Shown here: piece by piece, positions 9,040-62,000 of the stretch
Numbering within the stretch: position 1 is the stretch's first letter
How the letters are laid out: each line of letters starts with the position of its first letter
From: Paraspadella gotoi
Lineage: Eukaryota; Animalia; Chaetognatha
Length of the DNA stretch: 64,000 nt
Reading direction: 5' to 3'
Assembly (NCBI GenBank): GCA_051294375.1
Contig: CM119268.1
Span: 22,757,427-22,821,426, forward strand
Made by a program: the position numbers and the translations under genes
Notes under the pieces: model-generated
Databases searched by the model: none
What the model was told of the DNA's origin: nothing
The model's input: the letters and a program-made list of their open reading frames with translations, nothing else

Positions 9040-9364
9040 GGTCAAACTCTGGTTTTTCGAGTCATTGAATGTTATTGAAATAATTGCGTTCCAAGTTGAA
9101 TTTTTGTTGACTTATTTGTTTGTGTATTTTATCTGAATTTAATAGTTAAATGACTCTCATCGTTTTCTTTTAAGTTATTTAGGTTTTTGTTAGGTCTACG
9201 ATGACCAATAAACTGGAAAAAATTGTAGGCGTAGCTAGTTTTAAAACCTGCCAATCATCGACATGTACTACGAGGACTATTTTTGCGTTATTTTACTCAT
9301 AGCTCTTTAAATTCAGTTTTCGTTCTTAAAAAAATGAAGTAAAAAAAATATTTGAAAATTTGGA

Positions 9365-9495
9365 CATGCTTTGGTGCTTTAAGTTCTCCATCACTCTTAC
9401 AAGATAATGACATAGCAGGTCCATGCAAGCTTTCAATCAAGACTCTCACAGTCTTGTTTATTCACTCCCAGAGTACCTGGCTTCCCCATCAATAG
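9365..9495 (-). mobile_element. Dispersed repeat family A, partial copy
   Basis: Reverse complement matches 56578-56695 (GGTACTCTGGGAGTGAATAAAC...GAAAGCTTGCA...GACCTGCTATGTCATTATCTTGTAAGAGTGATGGAG). Confidence 0.88.
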
Positions 9496-15200: not shown

Positions 15201-18200
15201 GCCAGAATCCGGCGCCAAAACATCGCGAAGAAATTCTGGCGCCGAAAACCGAAAGTCGACGTCGTCGCAATTTCCTCTTCCGCGGCGTCGACGAAAATCG
15301 AAAGACGAAACCAAGGAGTTGAACTCGATTTGCGGCGCCGATCCTGGGGATGGCAAAGACGGCCGGGCTAGCAAGAACGGTAGTCATGGCAAGGACGGAA
15401 GAGCCAGCGAGGCTAAGAGCGCCAAGGACGTCAACGGGTCCGCCGGCGTCACCGTCCGACAAAAGATCCGTCAAAACGAAGGCGCCATCTTGATTTCATC
15501 TGGCGGCGGACGAAAGTATCACGTCGTCGAGATTCCTCTCGACGACGACGAGACGACGACATCGGCTGCGGCGGCCGATGTTTCCGTCGAAGATGAAAAT
15601 CCCGAGGAGGAAGAAGCGCCGCCGCCGCCGCCGAGTCGACCGCGGAAGCCGAGAGTCCCGCCGCCGCTGCCGCCGCACGGTCTTGGCACCGGGGAGGCGA
15701 AACAGCCGGGTGAGTTGGGCCGAAATTAGAGAGAAAATGAGAGCCTTAAACATCAAAAAAAGCTTTATTGCTTCTATTTATTTGAAAACTAAATCATTAT
15801 TAAATTATTTTTAAAAGGGGCTGTAAAATAGTAAACTTCTAAGAAAACCAACTACCACAATATGTAAATGAGATCGAAGAACTCATCACTACTCTTTTAC
15901 CCATCGGCCTTACAGGATCCCTCGATCTCCATCGATCCTCGAACCAAAGATTCGTCGTCGCGGATTCGATAAAGAAAAGTCCCATGTCCACGAATCCTCA
16001 GGACGAGTCTATCGGCGACTGCTCCTTGGGTGAGTCTCGTTTTTTTCCTTTGGGGTGAGTCTGGTTGCTTCAAGGGTAATTTCTTAAGATTTCCCCTCAA
16101 TCCAGACATGAACACCAGCGCTGGCAGCACCACCGTCGCCGACGAGAGTCTCGACTTTGACGACGACGACGACCGACGCGTCGAGTTCTTCGGCAGCCAA
16201 GCCACGCTGGAGGCGCTTTCCGCCTCTCGCCAACTCGGGGACGCCGCCACGGGGTCGCCCGCTCATCCGGCCGGCAGAACGCCGCTCACGGGAGCGGCTT
16301 TGGCGGCGCTGGGGTCGGCGCCGCGAGGTCATTCGATGGTCAACAGCGCTGCTGCTGGTGCTGAAGCGGCGACCTCGACTCCTGCCTCGGACGCGCTTTC
16401 TCCTCTCTCTCCTTTATCTTCCTCTTTTTGCTCTTCGAGGTACGGTTGTGGATTGCTTGATCATATTTGCTAAAATAAATTTATTTTAGCTGCCATGAGA
16501 CACACTTTCATACTAAAAAAAATCTCGTATTTTTAAAGCTAAATATTTTCGATTAAACAGAATAATTATTATAAGTTATTTATAATGAAATAATATAATA
16601 GAAGATAGCAGATGTCTAGCGGTTATTTTAATATTAATTGCTCAACGGCAACAATAAGAATCGTTGGGGTAAAATATTGATTTGTAATAATAAGAAAACC
16701 GAATCGAAAGATATGAATAAAAATATAAACTGCCACAATATGCAAATGAGATTGAGCACCTAATTCTTAATTGAAATGAACCACAAGTTACTCTGTAACA
16801 TTTATAATATTTAGTGTCTCTTGCACGCTTCTCCCCCCCTCCCCAGCCTTTCCAGCCAACCCATTCCAGTGCCATCCTCGTCTCGTCAAGGTTCAGCCTT
16901 CGACGCCTACGACGAAAATTCCATTTCTTCTTCCGTCATCGCTTCTCCTCTTGGAGGAACGCTGCATCGATCCATCAATTCCAACAGGTTTTAGTTTCTT
17001 CTTTTTCACCGTATTACCCGTTTTAATCATTAAAATTTGTTAATGTTTAATATCTCTTGATCTCAGCATCGGATCCCCGCCTTCCGAAGCGACGATGGAT
17101 CGATCCTCGACGTCCGCGTCGACTTCTTCTTCCCGGAAGCCCTCGTACCTCAGCATTTCAATGTCCGTCTCCGGGTCAGTTTTTATTCTCAGTCTCAGTC
17201 TCCGTCTCAGTTAACGACGTTTTTGATAACTTTCTACGCACCGTGACAAATGATTTTGTTCCCAAACTTTCTAATCAATCGTTATCATCGATTGCTTAAC
17301 TAGAAGAGTGAGTTTATACTTTAAAACTATAAAACGAGACGGGTAACGAATTTATTTCAACGCGTCGTTAACACGACTATATTCAAAATGAGATTGTTTT
17401 ATTCATTTTTCTGTCATATTTAAAAGTTCATCTTATGGCAACGGGAGGATAGCCTGTGATACCCGGGGCGCGGGGTATCTCACCAACTGGCGTAGGGGCT
17501 GCGGACCCTCAGTGACCGCCTCCTGTCACTGGCATGTTTATACCGGCACCGTCACATTTAAGCCAGAACCGGGATACCCAGGGATTGAACCCGGGACGCA
17601 CGGATGGAATGAGATGATTTAGCCTGCTCAGCCATTGAGACGAGGCTGAGGACGGACAGCAGTGAGGCAGCTTTAAGTCTTGCTGCCACAATCTCTTATA
17701 TACTAAACATTCTCTTTCCAGATATTCCCACTATCGCCGGGGCGGCGCCTCTTCTCTCTCCCTCCATCCGGGTCGGACCACTTCCTCTTCCTCCCTCGCC
17801 TCCCGCGGATCCGGCAGCGTCGCCTCCGGTTCCTCCGCCTTCAGCCACTCCACCAACGAAGCTAGTCACGCCGGGAGTCACCACTCGCGGACGAGAGAAC
17901 TCTCTGGCGGCGGCGGTTGGCGGGCTGGTTCGGTGCCGCCGGCGTCGGCGGCTGCCCGCCCATCCGCCGCTACGGAGTCGGAGGCTGCGTCGACGGCGGC
18001 GGTGCCTTTCTCCTCTTGCTTGATGGACCGATTCTGTTTGGGCTGCGGCTCCGCGTCGCCTCCTGCGCCGGCGACGTCGACGACCCGCTCGAGACTCGAT
18101 CCGCATCACCAACAGCCTTTTCTTCAACGAGAGCCGACGGGGAGGACCGCTGCGACGACGACTGCGACCGTCGTCAAGCGCACCTTTAACCGCGAAGGGC

Positions 18201-37989: not shown

Positions 37990-38342
37990 AGGAGACGCGA
38001 GTTTTTTTTTGTCGTTTCTTCTTTTTTTTTCGTTAATTTTTTTTCTCATTATTTTCGCGTAAAAAAACGATTACAAAACTGTTCCGACTGCAAGAAGAAT
38101 AACGATATTTGTGTTAGAAGCTAAATTAACCTGTTTTGAAGTTATATTGTTGATACAAAGAGGTCTTTAGTTTTTGTTTTGTTTTGTTTTTTTTTGTTTT
38201 TTTGCATTTGATCGCATGACTATTTCTCCCCGCCCTTCGATATTCCGTCAAGTAGCACGAATTTAGTTTGAATAGTTTTTTGCCCTTGACATTGGATCTC
38301 TTATTGTTTTGATTTTTGTCTCTTGAAGCAGCCCACGAAAAA

Positions 38343-39647
38343 ATGTGGACCTTCAAAGTCATTCGATCTCTCTCTCAAACGAACAGCGCGTTCGGCGTCG
38401 CCTGCAGATCCTCCAAAACTCGACGAGCGATTCGAAGCTCCGCCGCCTACGCGACGTCGCCGGTGATGTCGCCGCAAACCGGCCTCGACGACGCCGACGT
38501 CAAACCCTCTCATCTCTACAACTTCACCGAGGAAGAAATGATGATGCGAGACGCCGTGAAGAAAATGGCCGAAGAGAAGATCAAACCTCTCGTCCCAAAA
38601 ATGGATCGAGAAGGAAAGATGGATCCCGAGGTGTTAAAGGCCCTCTTCGAAAACGGGACGATGGGCATCGAGATATCGCCGGATTTCGGCGGCTGCGGCT
38701 CATCCTTCATGGCGTCCGTGTTGGTGATCGAGGAAATCGCTCGAGTCGATCCCGCCATCGCAGTTTTGGTCGACATTCAAAACACATTGATCAACACCCT
38801 CTTTCGTAAGATCGGTTCTCCCATGCTGCAGGAGAAGTACCTGCCGCGGCTGGCGACCGACTTGGCCGGCAGCTTCTGTTTGTCCGAGTCTTCGTCCGGC
38901 AGCGACGCCTTCGCGCTGAAGACGACGGCGCGAAAATCCGGCTCCGATTTCGTCCTCAACGGATCTAAACTGTGGATCTCCAACGCCGACGTCGCCGGCG
39001 TCTTTCTCGTCATGGCCAACGCGGCGCCGGAGTCGGGATATCGAGGCATCACTTGCTTCGTCGTCGATCGAGATTCCCCTGGACTCACCGTGGAAAAGAA
39101 AGAGGACAAACTTGGCATTCGAGCCTCGGGCACATGCCCGCTAACTTTCGAGAACGTCGTCGTGCCCGCGGATCACATCCTCGGTGAATTCGGGCAAGGA
39201 TACAAGTACGCGATCGGGATGCTCAACGAGGGACGCATCGGAATCGCCGCGCAGATGATCGGACTGTCGCAGGGATGCATGGATGCTACCTTGCCCTACT
39301 TGAAGGAAAGGTTTCAATTCGGACGACCCATTTGGGAATTTCAGGCCGTCAAACATCAAGTGGCACACATGGCGACGCAGCTCGAGGCCGCTCGCCTCAT
39401 GGTCTACAACTCGGCGCGACTTTGCGAGGCGGGTAGGGAAGTGGTGAAGGAAGGAGCGATGGCCAAGTACTTCACGTCGGAATTGGCGGGACAGATCACT
39501 TCCAAGTGCATCGATCTCATGGGCGGAGTCGGATTCACCAAAGACTATCCCATGGAAAAGTTTTATCGTGACTCGAAGATCGGTACGATTTACGAAGGGA
39601 CGTCGAACATTCAATTGAATACGATCGCCAAATGCATGGAGTTCTGA
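38343..39647 (+). CDS. ACADSB: Short/branched-chain acyl-CoA dehydrogenase, mitochondrial, intronless
   Basis: Presequence, then [52 protein letters not shown] and [26 protein letters not shown]. Confidence 0.95.
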
Positions 39648-40459: not shown

Positions 40460-43407
40460 GTTTTCCCTTCCCATGTTTCGAATCATGTGCATGTTAAGAA
40501 TGTCCTCCAACCCGTTTTATTTTCTCGACGTCACTAGGGAAACGAGTCATCGTGACGGGAGCCTCGAGGGGAATCGGCCGTCACGTCGCCCTTCATTACG
40601 CCAGGTCGAGAGAGAGAGAGAGACTAAAATGATTCATATTTGAATCACCCTATCCATGATTCTCCCCCCCCTCCCTTTTATAGCCTTGGCGCCAAACTTC
40701 TTCTCGTCTCTCGCGACGAGACGCACCTGGCGGCGGTGAAGCGAGAATGCGCGAAGACGGCGAAGAAGGGTAGACCGGCGGAGGTTTATTACCTGGTCGC
40801 CGATCAGGTGAGAGAGAGAGAGACAGAGCGAGAGAGTCTGGGAAATTTATAGAATAAAACTATGTATACTTCTATTTGACTTTTGAAATCAACAACGCCG
40901 CTCCAACTTTAAAATCCAATGAAATCGTCAAATAATCCTCGACTCTTTTACTTTTCCTTCTTTTACTTTTCCTTCTTTTACTTTTCCTTCTTCCCCCAAA
41001 AGTAAGAGAAGATAACGTTCTTGATTCCCATCAAAAAGTAAAACGCAAAAACGATGAGGAACAATTTCCAGGAAAATTTGGATTCCTTCTTCTTCGGCGC
41101 CAGTTTCTCCTTTTCTGTAGAGAATTGAGATGGTCAAACGAGCAATATCATTAATAATCTCTCAATAGATTAATTCTTATTTCATTAATAATCTCTCAAT
41201 ATTTAATTATTTATATTTCACCTCTCATTTCCTGGATGATCTTATCGAGGCTCGAGCCGGATCGCTTCCCTCCTTCCGGCTCCTCCCGCGGCATTTCTGG
41301 GATTTCCTTCTTCCCTTCCACTTTGTCCCAGTATTTGAAGAATTGCCGGCGTCGTTCGCACTCGGCCTGGCTTATTTTTCCTGTCGAGGGTCCGAAGAGG
41401 GTATGGAAGATTTTTTTTAAGGGGACAGTGAATTGATTTGTTCAAGGATCCTAGGAACGGAAGAGAGTTCCCTATTGTAGGCTGTAGATTGTAGAATTCT
41501 TGCTGAGAGAGCAGAAAGAATGGGATCTCATTTGCCGACGGTGAAATGGTTTGTGGAAAATACAGAAGAACCTTGCAAGAGCTGAAGACATTGCATCAAC
41601 TCGTTCTCTTCCATCCACGGTTCATCGTTGGGTCGCTGAAGCTTGGCCGATGGCTTCTTGCCCTTCGTCGCTAAAAACGGCCATAATTTAGTAATGACAT
41701 TTAGTAATAATAATTTAAAAGAAAAGGTAAACATTTTATTACTGTTATTATTACTCGGTCGGTCTTTTCCCCACAATCGGTCGGTGAAATCTTCGAAATT
41801 CTTCCTCGTTTCATTTTCTTTTTCTGTCGTATCTTGATTTTCCGCCGAAGAGGATTCGTCGGAGAACGGTTGAGAAAAAGACGTTTCCATGGTAATACGG
41901 ACGGAAAAGCGTAACGGGTCACCGAAGGATGCAATTTTATTGTTGAGTTTTTAACTCTTAATGACGATTTTACGTGGAATCTATACGTATTGGACGATTA
42001 CATGCCCTTTCCTTAACTTTTTTGTTCAAAGAAAAAATGTATAATATAAATAAAGCAAAGATTCGCTGAGAATCATCCCATTCTTTCCCTCTTTTCCTCC
42101 CTCGACAGGGTTCTCCCGAAGCCGCGGAACGGGTCGTCGCCGAAGCCGTCGCCATCTTCGGCGGAGTTGACACTCTTTTCCTCAATCACGCGGTCAGTAA
42201 CCACTTTCTCCGCCACGCCCATCCCCGTGGATGTTGTTTATCTCGCTCCTCTTTTTAAACCTTTCGGGTCCAGATTTCGACTCTGGGATTCTGGGAAGGA
42301 TCCTCGTCCAACGTGTCTTCAGCGACGGAGGCCGTCGACGTTAATTATCTCAGTTACATCCGCCTTTTCGCCGCCGCCCGCCCGCATCTTGAGAAAGTCA
42401 AAGGTTTTATTGCCCACTTTTTTTGTCAAACCTTACTTTCCCATAAAACCTCTTGACTTCCCCAAAAGGCAACGTGGTGGTGGTCTCCACTGCTGCTGCC
42501 CGGTGGCCTCTTCCGACCGTCGCACACTACGGAGCCTCCAAATTGGCCGTCGACGGATTTTTCCGCAGCCTCGACCTCGAATTCCGTCTCAGAGGAATTC
42601 ACGTCGGCGTCACCGTCTGCGTCCTCGGCGCGGTAAAGACGGAAAGGTAAGTTAGTGTTGATAAAGGTGAGGACTGAGGAGGTAGTACAAGATACAATTT
42701 GAACAGTCCTTGATAGGGAAGTCATATACTCTGCGAGTGAGTAAAATAGATTGTGTGAGAGTCTTGATTGAAAGCTTGCACGGTCTTGCTATAGAAGAGA
42801 CAGTATTTATTGTTGTGTTAGTGACAGAACCGTTCAATATAAGCAGTCCCTGAGCTTCGGATCAGGATGTAACACCGTGTTACAGGCGGGTTAAGCGCCC
42901 CGTCCCTCTTAACTGCTAGGCGACCACCGGGCTAGAGCCCCGGACCTTTGGGTTAGGATGCGAATGACTTGCCTCCGCTGATGAACGGTTGGTGGATTTT
43001 AGTCCACCATACTATGTTAGTATCTTGTAAGAATGATGGAAGCCTTAACCCACAATAGCCTGTCTAAAGTTAAGGGCAAGAAAGCTTAGTCATGGAATGG
43101 ATAATTTTAGTATTGCTTTTAACAATTTCACAATAAAATTAATTCAACAATAACCATACCTCCCAGATTCACCAAAAACCTGTTGGCTTTCAATCCTCGC
43201 GCGGCGGACAGCCTCGGATTCCGTCTGGCCGCGCACCCGAGCGAGACGGCCGACTTCATGATCAAAGCGGCGGCGCTGAGGAAACGCGAAGTCCGCTACC
43301 CATTTACTCAGATGATCTTGGGAGATCTCGTCGGCTGGATGCCGGAGCCAGTCAGGCTCGCCATACTCAAACGATCCGTGCCAGGGATCTACGGCATGGG
43401 CTTATGA
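40286..43407 (+). CDS. Short-chain dehydrogenase/reductase, 11-beta-hydroxysteroid dehydrogenase 1-like
   Basis: N-terminal hydrophobic anchor, KRVIVTGASRGIG, GGVDTLFLNHA, catalytic YGASK.AVDGFFRSL and VTVCVLGAVKTE. Confidence 0.88.
40978..41890 (-). CDS. Nested orphan gene, 176 aa, C-terminal transmembrane (tail-anchored) protein
   Basis: Four GT-AG exons (41890-41755, 41670-41572, 41380-41222, 41114-40978), all phase 1, join into one open frame ending ...SKFSWKLFLIVFAFYFLMGIKNVIFSYFWGKKEK*. Confidence 0.75.
42793..43011 (-). mobile_element. Structured SINE/retrozyme-like insertion E2 (tRNA-like head plus twister)
   Basis: Minus strand CAGCGGA...TAACCCAAAGGTCCGGGGCTCTAGCCCGG resembles the anticodon/T-arm region of an initiator tRNA. 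CTAT is duplicated at both ends. Enclosing stem AACCGTTCA/TGAACGGTT. Confidence 0.7.
42842..42917 (-). ncRNA. Twister ribozyme, type-P5 permutation (P2 one nucleotide short)
   Basis: Minus strand: AGCAGUU aa GAGG GA CGG ggcgcu UAA CCC GC c UGUAACA cgg UGUUACA u CCUGA U CCG AA GC UCAGG GACUGCU. Confidence 0.82.
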
Positions 43408-48954: not shown

Positions 48955-58021
<9,067 letters not shown>

Positions 58022-59068: not shown

Positions 59069-62000
59069 ATGCCTCACATCGAAGAAATCGGTGAGAAAAT
59101 GCATCACATTGGCGAAGTCGAGGACAAGATCAGCTTCAGAAGCGTCGTCTTGTCAGATTTACACAATTTGGGAATCAAAGTTCACAAGCCCCGACGCAAA
59201 AGCGGCTCCCACGCGGCTAAGGCGAGATGCAACCTATTTATTATATTATTTATATATTATTTCGATTATTTAAACGATGATTTAAATTCAGGAGAAGCAA
59301 GGGTCTTCCTCCCAGTCCTCAGCGGCTCCTACGTCCCCTTCCATCTTCCAACGCCCCCTGGACGAGGTTCCGTCGAGCATCGCGGACGACGAGCTGTTGG
59401 GCCACATGTTCGTTCCTTCTTTCCTCGTCGAGGCCTTCGAGTATCTCGGGCATCACTACAATTTGGAAGGGATTTTCAGGAAGAGCGGATCTGTGCAGCG
59501 GCAGAAGGAGTTGAAGGTGATTAACTGATTATGAATGAAGGTGATAATTTGAAATTGGGTTTCGATGGAGTCATTTGGACCGAAAACAATTTGTTGAAGC
59601 TGTGATCTGAAATCATGATATATCTCTTCCGCTTCTTTTCTTCGAATAATGGCACTCTTCGTTTAAAAATCTACGTTCTTCTTTATTAATTAATATTAAT
59701 AAATAAATAAATATTAATTTCAGAGTCGCATCGAGTCGGGGCGATTCGATTTCTCCGACGCCCAGCCCAACGACGTCACTTCAGTCGTTAAAGAGTTTTT
59801 CCGAAATCTTCCCGAGCCGCTTCTTCCCTTCCACTTTCACCACGCGTTTTTCAAGGTCGATCAAGTTAATTCCCAATCCCCACTTAATCCCCAATCCCCA
59901 CGTAATCCCCAATCCCCACTTAATCATGTTAACCAGAAATGTTAATTATGTGAAAAAGGGGTTAAGTGGGCTGAAGACTACTATCCGTATCTTCTGTGCC
60001 CCATGAGCAGCAATGAAACGGGTCCTGGGCTTGGAACCAGACGTGAGGGTTTTCCAGGCCCCTCAAGGCGGTTTACGGCCGTCCTCACGGTTATGGTCAT
60101 AAGTTGATGGTATTGCTCAAAGAGCCACCGGGTCACGTCTGAAGGTTTCATGCGGGGTGAACTTATGCCCGACTACAATTATAAATATGAAATTGGTACA
60201 ACCAATATAAAAATTATAAAAATTATTATTATTATTATGTAATAATGATCGCAGTTGTTCTCCGCTCTACAGGTGATGTCTTTTCCCGACGATCTCATCG
60301 ACGAATCGACTTCATTGACGAAGGAGGACGCGATGTCCCTCTTGTGCTGCCTTCTCCCGATGTCTCACCTCACCACTCTCCGATTCGTTCTCAACGAGCT
60401 CAAGAAAATCTCACGATGCGTCGACGTGAGTTACGAGATGTTCGTGTGAATGTTCAATGGTATTCTGTTGTTGATAATTTGGTGGTTTCAGAGATATAAG
60501 ACTGACTATGACTAGTTAATAATAAGAACTGAGACTTCAAAATGTGAATATTTGTGAGATAAGAAAAGTTCAGCCACTTGAGAGAGAAACCCTCAATTGT
60601 AGGAAGCAGAATCTCGCTAAATTAAATTCGGAATTATTCTAGTAAAACATTACATAAACTTTTATGAATCATTTACACTACTAAACAATATTAAGACGTA
60701 GATGTCGAAAAAAAAACACAAAAATTAAATAAAATATTGAAACAGAACCCCTGTCGCTTTAAAATTTGTTTTACTATATGCAAATGAGATTGATGAACTA
60801 AATCTAATACTAAAAATTAATAAACTATCATCCTCATCAAAAATTCAGGAGAACAAGATGGACGTGACGAACTTGTCGGTGATCATGACCCCCAACTTTA
60901 TGCCGGCGCCGAAGGACGATTCCAAATCCGGCGGATCTCAGGGCGACGAATCCAAGACGCTCAATCGACGGACGGGAGTCGTCACGATGTTGCTCGGGAT
61001 GGCGGAGAAGTTCGTTTTCATGGGATGGGATGGGATGAGGTCACTTATTGTCTTTTGGGATCATTTTTCATCCTTTTCTTTTTTCTTAGAATCGGTTCCG
61101 TCCCCGTCTCGATCTTCGAACGCGCCCGCATGATGTCGTCCCTGTTTCCGTCGGCGGCGGCGGCGGCGTCGAACGGCGACGTCGGCGACGAAGATTCGAT
61201 GCGCGACGACGATAAACCTAAACTCAAGCGGAAGAAGAGAAGCGCTTCTTTTTCAGGTGAGGAAAAAAATGAGGAAATCATTTGATTCTTTTGTTTTTAC
61301 TCGGATCTGATTATCGCAGATTCCGGCTCTATAGAGTCTATACTTGTAAATATAATTCACTTAGTCGGTCCTTCGGCCCAACCCAAAAGCTTTTTTAGTA
61401 AGTCATTTGAATTATGTCGAATCTGTCATCGAATTACAATAAATTATGTAAAAAAATCAATGCCCGTCTGTCCGTCAGTCCAGAAATCAAGTTTCGAAGG
61501 AATCATACTTGTGTAAAAGTTTAAAAGAAGAAAACAAAAATCACGTTATTTGAATTGTTTTTTTTTTTTTTAGACGGATGTAATTAAGGTTGAACAAATT
61601 ATTTATTGTAAATATTGATAGTAAATTATATGAAATAAAATTATTAATCATAACTTATCATCAGATTAGATGCTTACTGCTTAATGATCGTGGGCAGTTC
61701 CAGCATTGTTTGCTCAAACTTGTTTCATTGATTTAAAAAAAATAATTTTTGATGTCATTTGTATTTCTTTATTTGATAAATTATCCAAATAAAAAAAAGA
61801 AATGCGGAAGAGATTGAGCAACGGTTTATCTCATATGGCCGAAGACGTTGCTGACGGTATGTGTGAAATCGCTTGGCAAGGGTCACCCACGAGCCGTGCA
61901 ATCTGTCCCACTGCTCTCAGTTATTGACTAACTTATGCTCATTCCGGTTTTTTTTTTCTTTCACCGTCGCTAAAAGATTTTTTATAGAAGCTGAAAATAT

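Follow-up and report, generated by a model that had tools for sequence, protein, structure and literature searches.

Helenus (TRIMp3; Kojima 2024, PMC10886601) is a non-coding retrotransposon of less than 1 kb that carries tRNA-like A and B boxes in its long terminal repeat (LTR), generates a 4-bp duplication in its animal forms, occurs also as solo LTRs and has a primer site after the LTR, with gypsy elements as its likely helpers. Plant LTR retrozymes (Cervera 2016, PMC4918200) combine a type III hammerhead ribozyme in each LTR with a non-coding interior, a primer site, a 4-bp duplication and solo LTRs, and they give rise to a unit-length circular RNA. In this work we describe a 257-bp element (positions 17434..17690, minus strand) in a 64,000-nt stretch of Paraspadella gotoi contig CM119268.1, which was analysed at its full length and is called the window. 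The element resembles both groups in the features listed apart from the class of ribozyme, its two-LTR form and primer site being putative and its circular RNA predicted only, and it contains a type-P5 twister fold. [quoted passage not shown]

The twister fold, including a P3 arm, was delimited by pairing analysis at positions 17487..17566 and reads, along the minus strand, P5, P2′, G-A, T1′, P1, U-A-A, P2, T2, P3, P4, L4, P4′ and P5′. In agreement with the first-pass annotation, P5, P2, P3, P4, T1 and T2 all pair on the minus strand from 17566 to 17487: the stems are entirely Watson-Crick, with five base pairs in P5 (17566-62/17491-87), four in P2 (17557-54/17537-34), seven in P3 and four in P4, while the pseudoknots T1 (3 bp, 17551-49/17504-02) and T2 (2 bp, 17533-32/17499-98) are given as complementarity of sequence only. 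The cut that had been placed between 17540 and 17539 also held, since U-A-A was found at 17538..17540 (minus strand; prediction by homology to twisters described in PMC8501958). The G-A, which by homology comprises the catalytic G and its neighbour, is followed by the T1 partner strand (17549..17553, minus strand), and loop L4 (17498..17505, minus strand) includes the T1 and T2 strands; its position 17501 is C, whereas A is usual there in twisters. The sequence also has the A after the cut, the G with its following A, U24-A29 and the G-C pair closing L4, positions whose catalytic and structural roles have been reported previously (PMC5408937, PMC9901934). Compared with the Rfam type-P5 family RF02684, strand order, P2, P4, P5, T1, T2, U-A-A, G-A, U24, A29 and the G-C pair closing L4 are alike, whereas the C at position 28, the P3 arm, a nearly loopless P1 and the lack of a reportable Rfam score are different. 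We conclude that positions 17487-17566 form a real type-P5 twister fold with all helices and both pseudoknots paired, and we class it as a natural variant (A28C) and not as a canonical member, because both A28 and the Rfam score are missing. From its sequence, self-cleavage is likely.

A permissive descriptor that required neither P3 nor P5 matched once in the real window and three times in 1500 windows shuffled block-wise by dinucleotide. Another 41 public loci (7 viral and 34 from metagenomes) fitting a degenerate type-P5 primary-sequence pattern were used as a null only; combined pairing of P2, T1 and P4 was observed in none of them, and an Rfam scan of 20 of these loci returned no twister. 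An exact 22-nt piece of the twister had no match among metagenome contigs.

The first-pass annotation had treated the C of L4 as a deviation to be reverted to A. The C at 17501 is there, and the A at position 28, which forms an A-A pair extending T1, is absent family-wide; the C is nevertheless not a lesion, because no letter other than C was listed at 17501 in public assembled contigs, which were placed on the locus from 7 of 14 runs (listed at 3% for X2, X3, X9 and X10 and at 1% for X5, X9, X11 and X12), and because A28C is tolerated in the mutational matrix of the rice twister Osa-1-4 (PMC5113685). The relative activity of A28C in that matrix is 1.00, a 2-hour end point that according to its authors masks rate losses and that comes from a sequence background different from ours. 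A28U and A28G gave 0.96 and 0.48, the latter agreeing with a tabulated fraction of 0.39 over a wild-type value of 0.821, which confirms the assignment of the matrix columns, and C27G+G47C, equivalent to the T1 pair of our twister, retained 0.86. A28C exists as a natural, amplified variant.

The twister had been annotated as a stand-alone intronic motif. Instead, it belongs to a mobile element of many copies, whose terminal repeat contains it; the element also has polymerase III boxes and a 4-bp target duplication, and it is in this setting that the function of the twister most likely resides. As delimited by a step in contig depth and by the loose ends of contigs, the element runs from 17690 to 17434 on the minus strand, starts with TG, ends with TA, has an imperfect terminal inverted repeat and contains no run of four T. 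With the boundary set independently by the loose ends, an exact 4-bp target-site duplication, AGAT, flanks it at the single locus that could be checked (upstream copy 17691..17694, downstream copy 17430..17433, minus strand). A near-duplication of 7-9 bp, ATAAGA(GA)T, was considered as a SINE-type (short interspersed element) duplication and rejected, since the read-defined ends give the exact 4-bp one. The motif at 17623..17634 (minus strand) is A-box-like by its match to the RNA polymerase III consensus, and a B-box-like motif (17582..17591, minus strand) starts 43 nt after it, within a T-arm-like hairpin. When compared with the Helenus boxes (TRGCY..YGG and GGTTC), TRGCY and GGTTC match, while the A box ends with AGG and not YGG. 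ARAGORN detected no tRNA gene in the element, and its tRNA-like head does not fold into a cloverleaf.

The antisense position within a DLGAP-like intron, also proposed previously, was retained: the intron spans 17175..17721 on the plus strand (GT/AG borders and frame continuity), the twister lies on the minus strand, and the end of the element is 31 nt from the intron acceptor. A later exon of the host gene matches Pfam GKAP with E=0.0015, under the curated cut-off, and the gene, presumably of the DLGAP/GKAP type, was labelled from this match together with the known motifs of such genes. The first T4 run downstream of the element lies in the host intron (17422..17425, minus strand) and could serve as a polymerase III stop for the solo copy.

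The contigs showed that the element belongs to a family with sharp ends. Summed contig depth was 77-460 in the flanks and 500,000-870,000 over 17439-17690 in X2 and X3, and 16-49 in the flanks and 36,000-275,000 inside the element in X5; overlapping short contigs inflate such sums, which are not copy numbers. At the two ends of the element we counted loose ends in at least 70 and 58 contigs of X3, at least 72 and 58 of X2 and at least 49 and 42 of X5, these being lower bounds from the best six rows, with 440 and 218 rows beyond them. Depth step and loose ends fall at 17432-17434 and 17690-17692. X2 and X3 are possibly the source of the window itself, a mark that X5 and X9 lack. None of the runs is registered as RNA; X9 and X10 are presumed to be RNA, but as contigs they are uninformative on expression or ends. 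About half of the placed records were at least 99% alike (874 of 1739, 1194 of 2235 and 312 of 660), indicating that the family is young, and the window copy carries the majority letter at every site listed in X2, X3, X5 and X9. No empty-site joint was seen among the joints listed, beyond which there were 10 and 6 further rows.

Past 17432 on the minus strand, the LTR end is followed by 2 nt and TGG..., a layout like that of a primer-binding site, in X2, X3 and X9; at least the last 14 letters of the loose ends at this position were common to these runs (10, 12 and 2 contigs, respectively), and the row of X5 was mixed. A 265-nt contig (record 1 of X10) contains 17666-17690, then 222 other letters and then 17432-17449, which would put the interior at about 224 nt and the full length of the element at about 738 bp. 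One contig each in X3, X5 and X9 connects 17456 with 17626 across 28 other letters and then returns from 17625 to 17432, a rearranged copy without the twister segment. The loose ends of X3 were extended by one base (17433 and 17691) in 49 of 70 and 33 of 58 contigs, suggesting a target preference for 4-mers of the form A...T, although the left count is partly interior sequence. Exact or near-exact LTR pieces, at low depth and with no flanks, were also present in X10, X11 and X12, runs that carry the labels of three other organisms. These pieces are most simply read as trace DNA from organism A, and we do not claim that the element was transferred horizontally to B, C and D, as the few contigs mix exact young copies with an older one.

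P1 had been described as an 8-nt mini-hairpin. A hairpin of 2 bp (U-A and G-U) with a 4-nt loop is indeed possible in this segment (17541..17548, minus strand, pairing analysis) and provides beside U-A-A the two or more pairs that P1 usually has in twisters (PMC8501958), but the octamer is better read as a palindrome, since it is fully self-complementary and would pair with a second copy at -10.9 kcal/mol. P1 has been found to be dispensable for twister cleavage (PMC5408937). When P1 was left unconstrained in a loose scan, four twister-like motifs were obtained in the window (at 17553, 42904, 60086 and 56680), and P1 was self-complementary in all four, each time with a different sequence and in three of them wholly without a loop. 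The same scan on 1000 shuffles gave 248 matches, only four of them self-complementary, and a single shuffled window with four matches. A P1 without a loop cannot close on itself, so that it requires either a stem of 1-2 bp with a self-complementary tetraloop or pairing between two copies; its self-complementarity in four motifs suggests pairing between two ribozymes, and twisters may thus act as dimers. A minor subfamily seen in X5 has lost the outer pair of P1 (by changes at 17548 in 34 contigs and at 17541 in 22), hence an 8-bp dimer helix is not needed family-wide, and a variant at 17547 changes the G-U pair of P1 to A-U in 19 contigs. This subfamily is older and differs at three P1 positions (17541-17548) and at three more in the stretch that separates the A box from the B box (17604-17610).

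The other three motifs lie in different surroundings. The first is a P5-order twister-like motif in an unrelated 219-bp insert (42793..43011, minus strand), where it follows a decayed B-box-like motif; the insert has a 4-bp duplication, is nested in a copy of the repeat family found at 56.6 kb and ends in TA...CT, not TG...CA, and the motif has a canonical L4, a 3-nt P2 strand and a 6-nt self-complementary P1. Rfam reported no twister at 42780-43020, neither at gathering level nor at E<=10. The second lies in an unrelated 229-bp TG...CA insert (59949..60177, minus strand) with a 4-bp duplication, TAAT, from which its ends were chosen; no polymerase III boxes were found in it, and the motif has a 6-nt palindromic P1, a P2 mismatch and a weak P5. 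The third is the twister-P5-like motif of the older repeat family (56665..56729, plus strand), which scored 25.8 bits with RF02684 against a cut-off of 37.6; its P1 is a 6-nt palindrome, and in the family copy at 56575-56790 T2 reads AC/GU. Further pieces of this family were found at 929-1006, 2823-2947, 9359-9493, 42707-42792 plus 43012-43130, and 60177-60217. The elements around the four motifs have only words of 8-9 nt in common, bar one weak match of 22 nt. The unrelated inserts retain P4, T1 and T2 with different sequences, with P2 strands that are short or mismatched, as in three of the four window motifs.

From these data we lean towards a model in which the twister, seen here in a solo LTR, would act in the two-LTR form of the element, which RNA polymerase III would transcribe and which would be cut once per LTR to yield a unit RNA of about 481 nt. 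Transcription would start near 17642 in the first LTR and read through the T4-free LTR (the interior might hold a terminator), and both twisters would cut at U|A. The unit RNA would then consist of 106 nt from the first LTR, about 224 nt of interior and 151 nt from the second LTR, with a 5′-hydroxyl, a 2′,3′-cyclic phosphate and no terminal redundancy. Since such ends can be ligated and terminal redundancy would be missing, the unit RNA would be ligated to a circle, on which a tRNA would prime reverse transcription that runs through the junction and relies on enzymes supplied by an autonomous element of the gypsy type; circle-templated reverse transcription has been proposed for plant retrozymes. 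The helper would also integrate the element with the 4-bp duplication, and through the palindromic P1 the two ribozymes on a single transcript would be able to pair with each other. The solo copy itself cannot move because the primer site is absent. If transcribed, it would at most produce two short RNAs, of about 100 and 115 nt, that run antisense to the intron of the host gene and stop at the T4 run at 17425, and its twister would not cut the host pre-mRNA.

Several points weigh against this model, the first being that only DNA anatomy was observed directly (the fold, the polymerase III boxes, the 4-bp duplication, the family's sharp ends and the T4-free LTR), from which we infer transcription, cleavage and the circle. 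In pseudoknot-free folding, a model that omits T1 and T2 and whose energies are uncalibrated against any known twister, the twister arrangement was predicted at -19.5 kcal/mol and the best fold at -26.0 kcal/mol, a gap of 6.5. The predicted probabilities were 0.01 for P2 and 0.03 for P4, against 0.66-0.92 for a 5-bp hairpin covering the cut site, and that of P5 was 0 when folding began at the presumed start site. The folding energy of the 80-mer was no better than that of shuffles (z -0.37). Rfam reported no twister at 17487-17566 at gathering level or at E<=10, the gathering score of RF02684 not being reached; the Rfam P5 model has 58 positions and P3 is absent in the single alignment inspected, which may account for the missed match. 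A core change at 17499 is present in 14 contigs of X3, and to these points are added the limits of the Osa-1-4 values and the broken P1 pair of the minor subfamily.

The loss of P5 in transcripts folded from the presumed start would fit a linear route, in which the first-LTR twister is misfolded and the second-LTR twister forms the 3′ end in the terminator's stead, with about 100 nt, from the polymerase III start to the cut, as the repeated region for ordinary strand transfer. The LTR without a T4 run agrees with this possibility, as does Cassandra, whose polymerase III RNA is linear and terminally redundant (PMC10886601). However, the two LTRs are identical in sequence and misfolding is predicted for the full LTR as well, so that no asymmetry is shown, and plant elements whose two LTRs both carry a ribozyme accumulate circles; we consider the linear route unlikely.

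The competing hairpin and the low modelled probabilities of P2 and P4 could also mean that the TRIM-like repeat is real but its twister a passenger, slow or dead, trapped by the cut-site hairpin, in an element that moves without it. The lack of an Rfam score and the short or mismatched P2 of three window motifs point in the same direction, and most of the Helenus LTRs examined by eye in the PMC10886601 supplement show no obvious ribozyme. Yet all pairs are intact in the youngest and most amplified form, and plant retrozyme hammerheads are likewise predicted to be blocked but are able to cut (PMC4918200). None of the nine sites at which the most contigs vary (17492, 17541, 17547, 17548, 17580, 17604, 17607, 17610 and 17642) lies among the 58 positions that are core or paired, with a chance p of about 0.1, the sites having been picked by contig count with rarer rows left out and with a listing threshold that is uneven along the element. 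Rarer variants reach the core at 17499, 17506, 17536, 17549 and 17550. This avoidance of the fold by frequent variants is a weak sign of selection; the fold kept with different stems in unrelated inserts is a stronger one, although their P2 strands are short or mismatched. A slow or dead passenger is improbable.

The remaining points concern the anatomy of the element. The contig that links its two ends has low depth and stems from a run with the label organism B; a tandem array would yield the same contig, and so would a circle. A polypurine tract was not seen, the loose-end consensus at 17690 being mixed (agreement 0.42-0.43). The list of Helenus primers does not include the sequence found here, and its tRNA is absent from those in Figure S2 of PMC10886601. 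The LTR ends with TA and not CA, an end that is also found in some Helenus consensus LTRs. A single contig cannot separate two LTRs from a tandem unit, and together with the missing polypurine tract this leaves room for a SINE-like or tandem non-LTR retrozyme with a 481-bp unit and an accidental resemblance to an LTR; the order of promoter and then ribozyme is also that of the Schistosoma hammerhead repeats (PMC6765202). Against it, the ends stay fixed over dozens of junctions, and neither a tail nor a series of 5′ truncations appears among the rows listed. The exact 4-bp duplication, the TG start, the inverted termini and the TGG-initial primer-like sequence 2 nt past the end also speak against it, and metazoan non-LTR retrozymes lack LTRs, primer sites and polypurine tracts (2020 review) and in one family have 15-bp duplications. 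Variable 5′ ends and a tail or long duplication, which characterize SINEs and non-LTR retrozymes together with the lack of a primer site, were not found among the rows listed, and this explanation is very improbable.

We file the element as Helenus-like from the layout of its sequence; it differs from Helenus in having a twister fold after the B box and a T4-free LTR, in addition to the primer and polypurine tract mentioned above. In the main text of PMC10886601 the word twister does not occur and hammerheads appear only in a reference title. By eye, the gall-wasp LTRs Helenus-2_SyJa-LTR and Helenus-2_SyUm-LTR of that work have a type III hammerhead core 3′ of the B box, which the text of the paper does not mention. 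Polymerase III LTRs that contain a ribozyme may thus form a larger group that has gone unrecognised.

Plant LTR retrozymes differ from the element in several respects: their ribozyme is a type III hammerhead, while the element has a type-P5 twister, an animal-like host and polymerase III boxes; their LTRs measure 300-400 bp as compared with 257 bp, and the interior of the element is also shorter; and they use a tRNA-Met primer, to which the primer of the element was not matched. The Rfam scan gave no hammerhead family match in the window. The element would work like a retrozyme, but we do not class it as one, as the twister replaces the hammerhead. The twister variants at the 5′ ends of Perere-3/RTE elements (Liu 2021, PMC8501958) are likewise twisters of a retroelement for the processing of its own RNA, which is predicted in our case, and likewise have a weak P1; they differ in their type-P1 order, in belonging to autonomous non-LTR elements and in a P1 formed partly by target DNA, whereas ours has P5 order inside an LTR. 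Twisters also occur in viroid-like circles (bioRxiv 10.1101/2022.07.19.500677). The minimal dimeric hammerheads of Penelope-like elements (PMC6765202, PMC7761336) resemble the window twister in a palindromic, near-loopless stem, in paired terminal repeats, putative in the case of the window element, and in a proposed pairing between two ribozymes, but both the ribozyme and the class of element are different, and dimeric cleavage of the window element would follow only by analogy.

Literature titles and abstract openings revealed neither a twister in an LTR or TRIM nor a dimeric twister, subscription journals, Repbase, Dfam, Roth 2014 and Lunse 2017 being outside this scope, and unit-length processing by a ribozyme in the LTR was found in print only for plant elements, with another ribozyme. 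Few eukaryotic twisters have an assigned function; this one comes with a young, amplified element and with exact predictions (the cut site, a start near 17642 and a product of about 481 nt), and it belongs to a kind of ribozyme that Rfam scans miss. The four different self-complementary P1 segments within 64 kb allow a wider and more speculative reading, on balance doubtful, namely that animals possess twister-based LTR retrozymes, with several unrelated miniature LTR families in this genome whose type-P5 twisters pair through a palindromic P1 between the two LTR copies of a transcript, so that only RNA with two LTRs is cut efficiently and circularised, the RNA of the present family being made by polymerase III. 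If so, it would provide the first case of a dimeric twister as well as the first LTR retroelement driven by a twister, and the hammerhead-bearing gall-wasp LTRs would hint at a wider, overlooked class of animal elements with ribozymes in their LTRs.

Elsewhere in the window, another short interspersed repeat family is represented by copies of 71-84% identity at 16691-16796, 50219-50325, 51170-51265 and 57122-57233. Positions 38313-39644 (plus strand) hold a long, unbroken reading frame for an acyl-CoA dehydrogenase of the short/branched-chain-like type, in a genome in which other genes contain many small introns.

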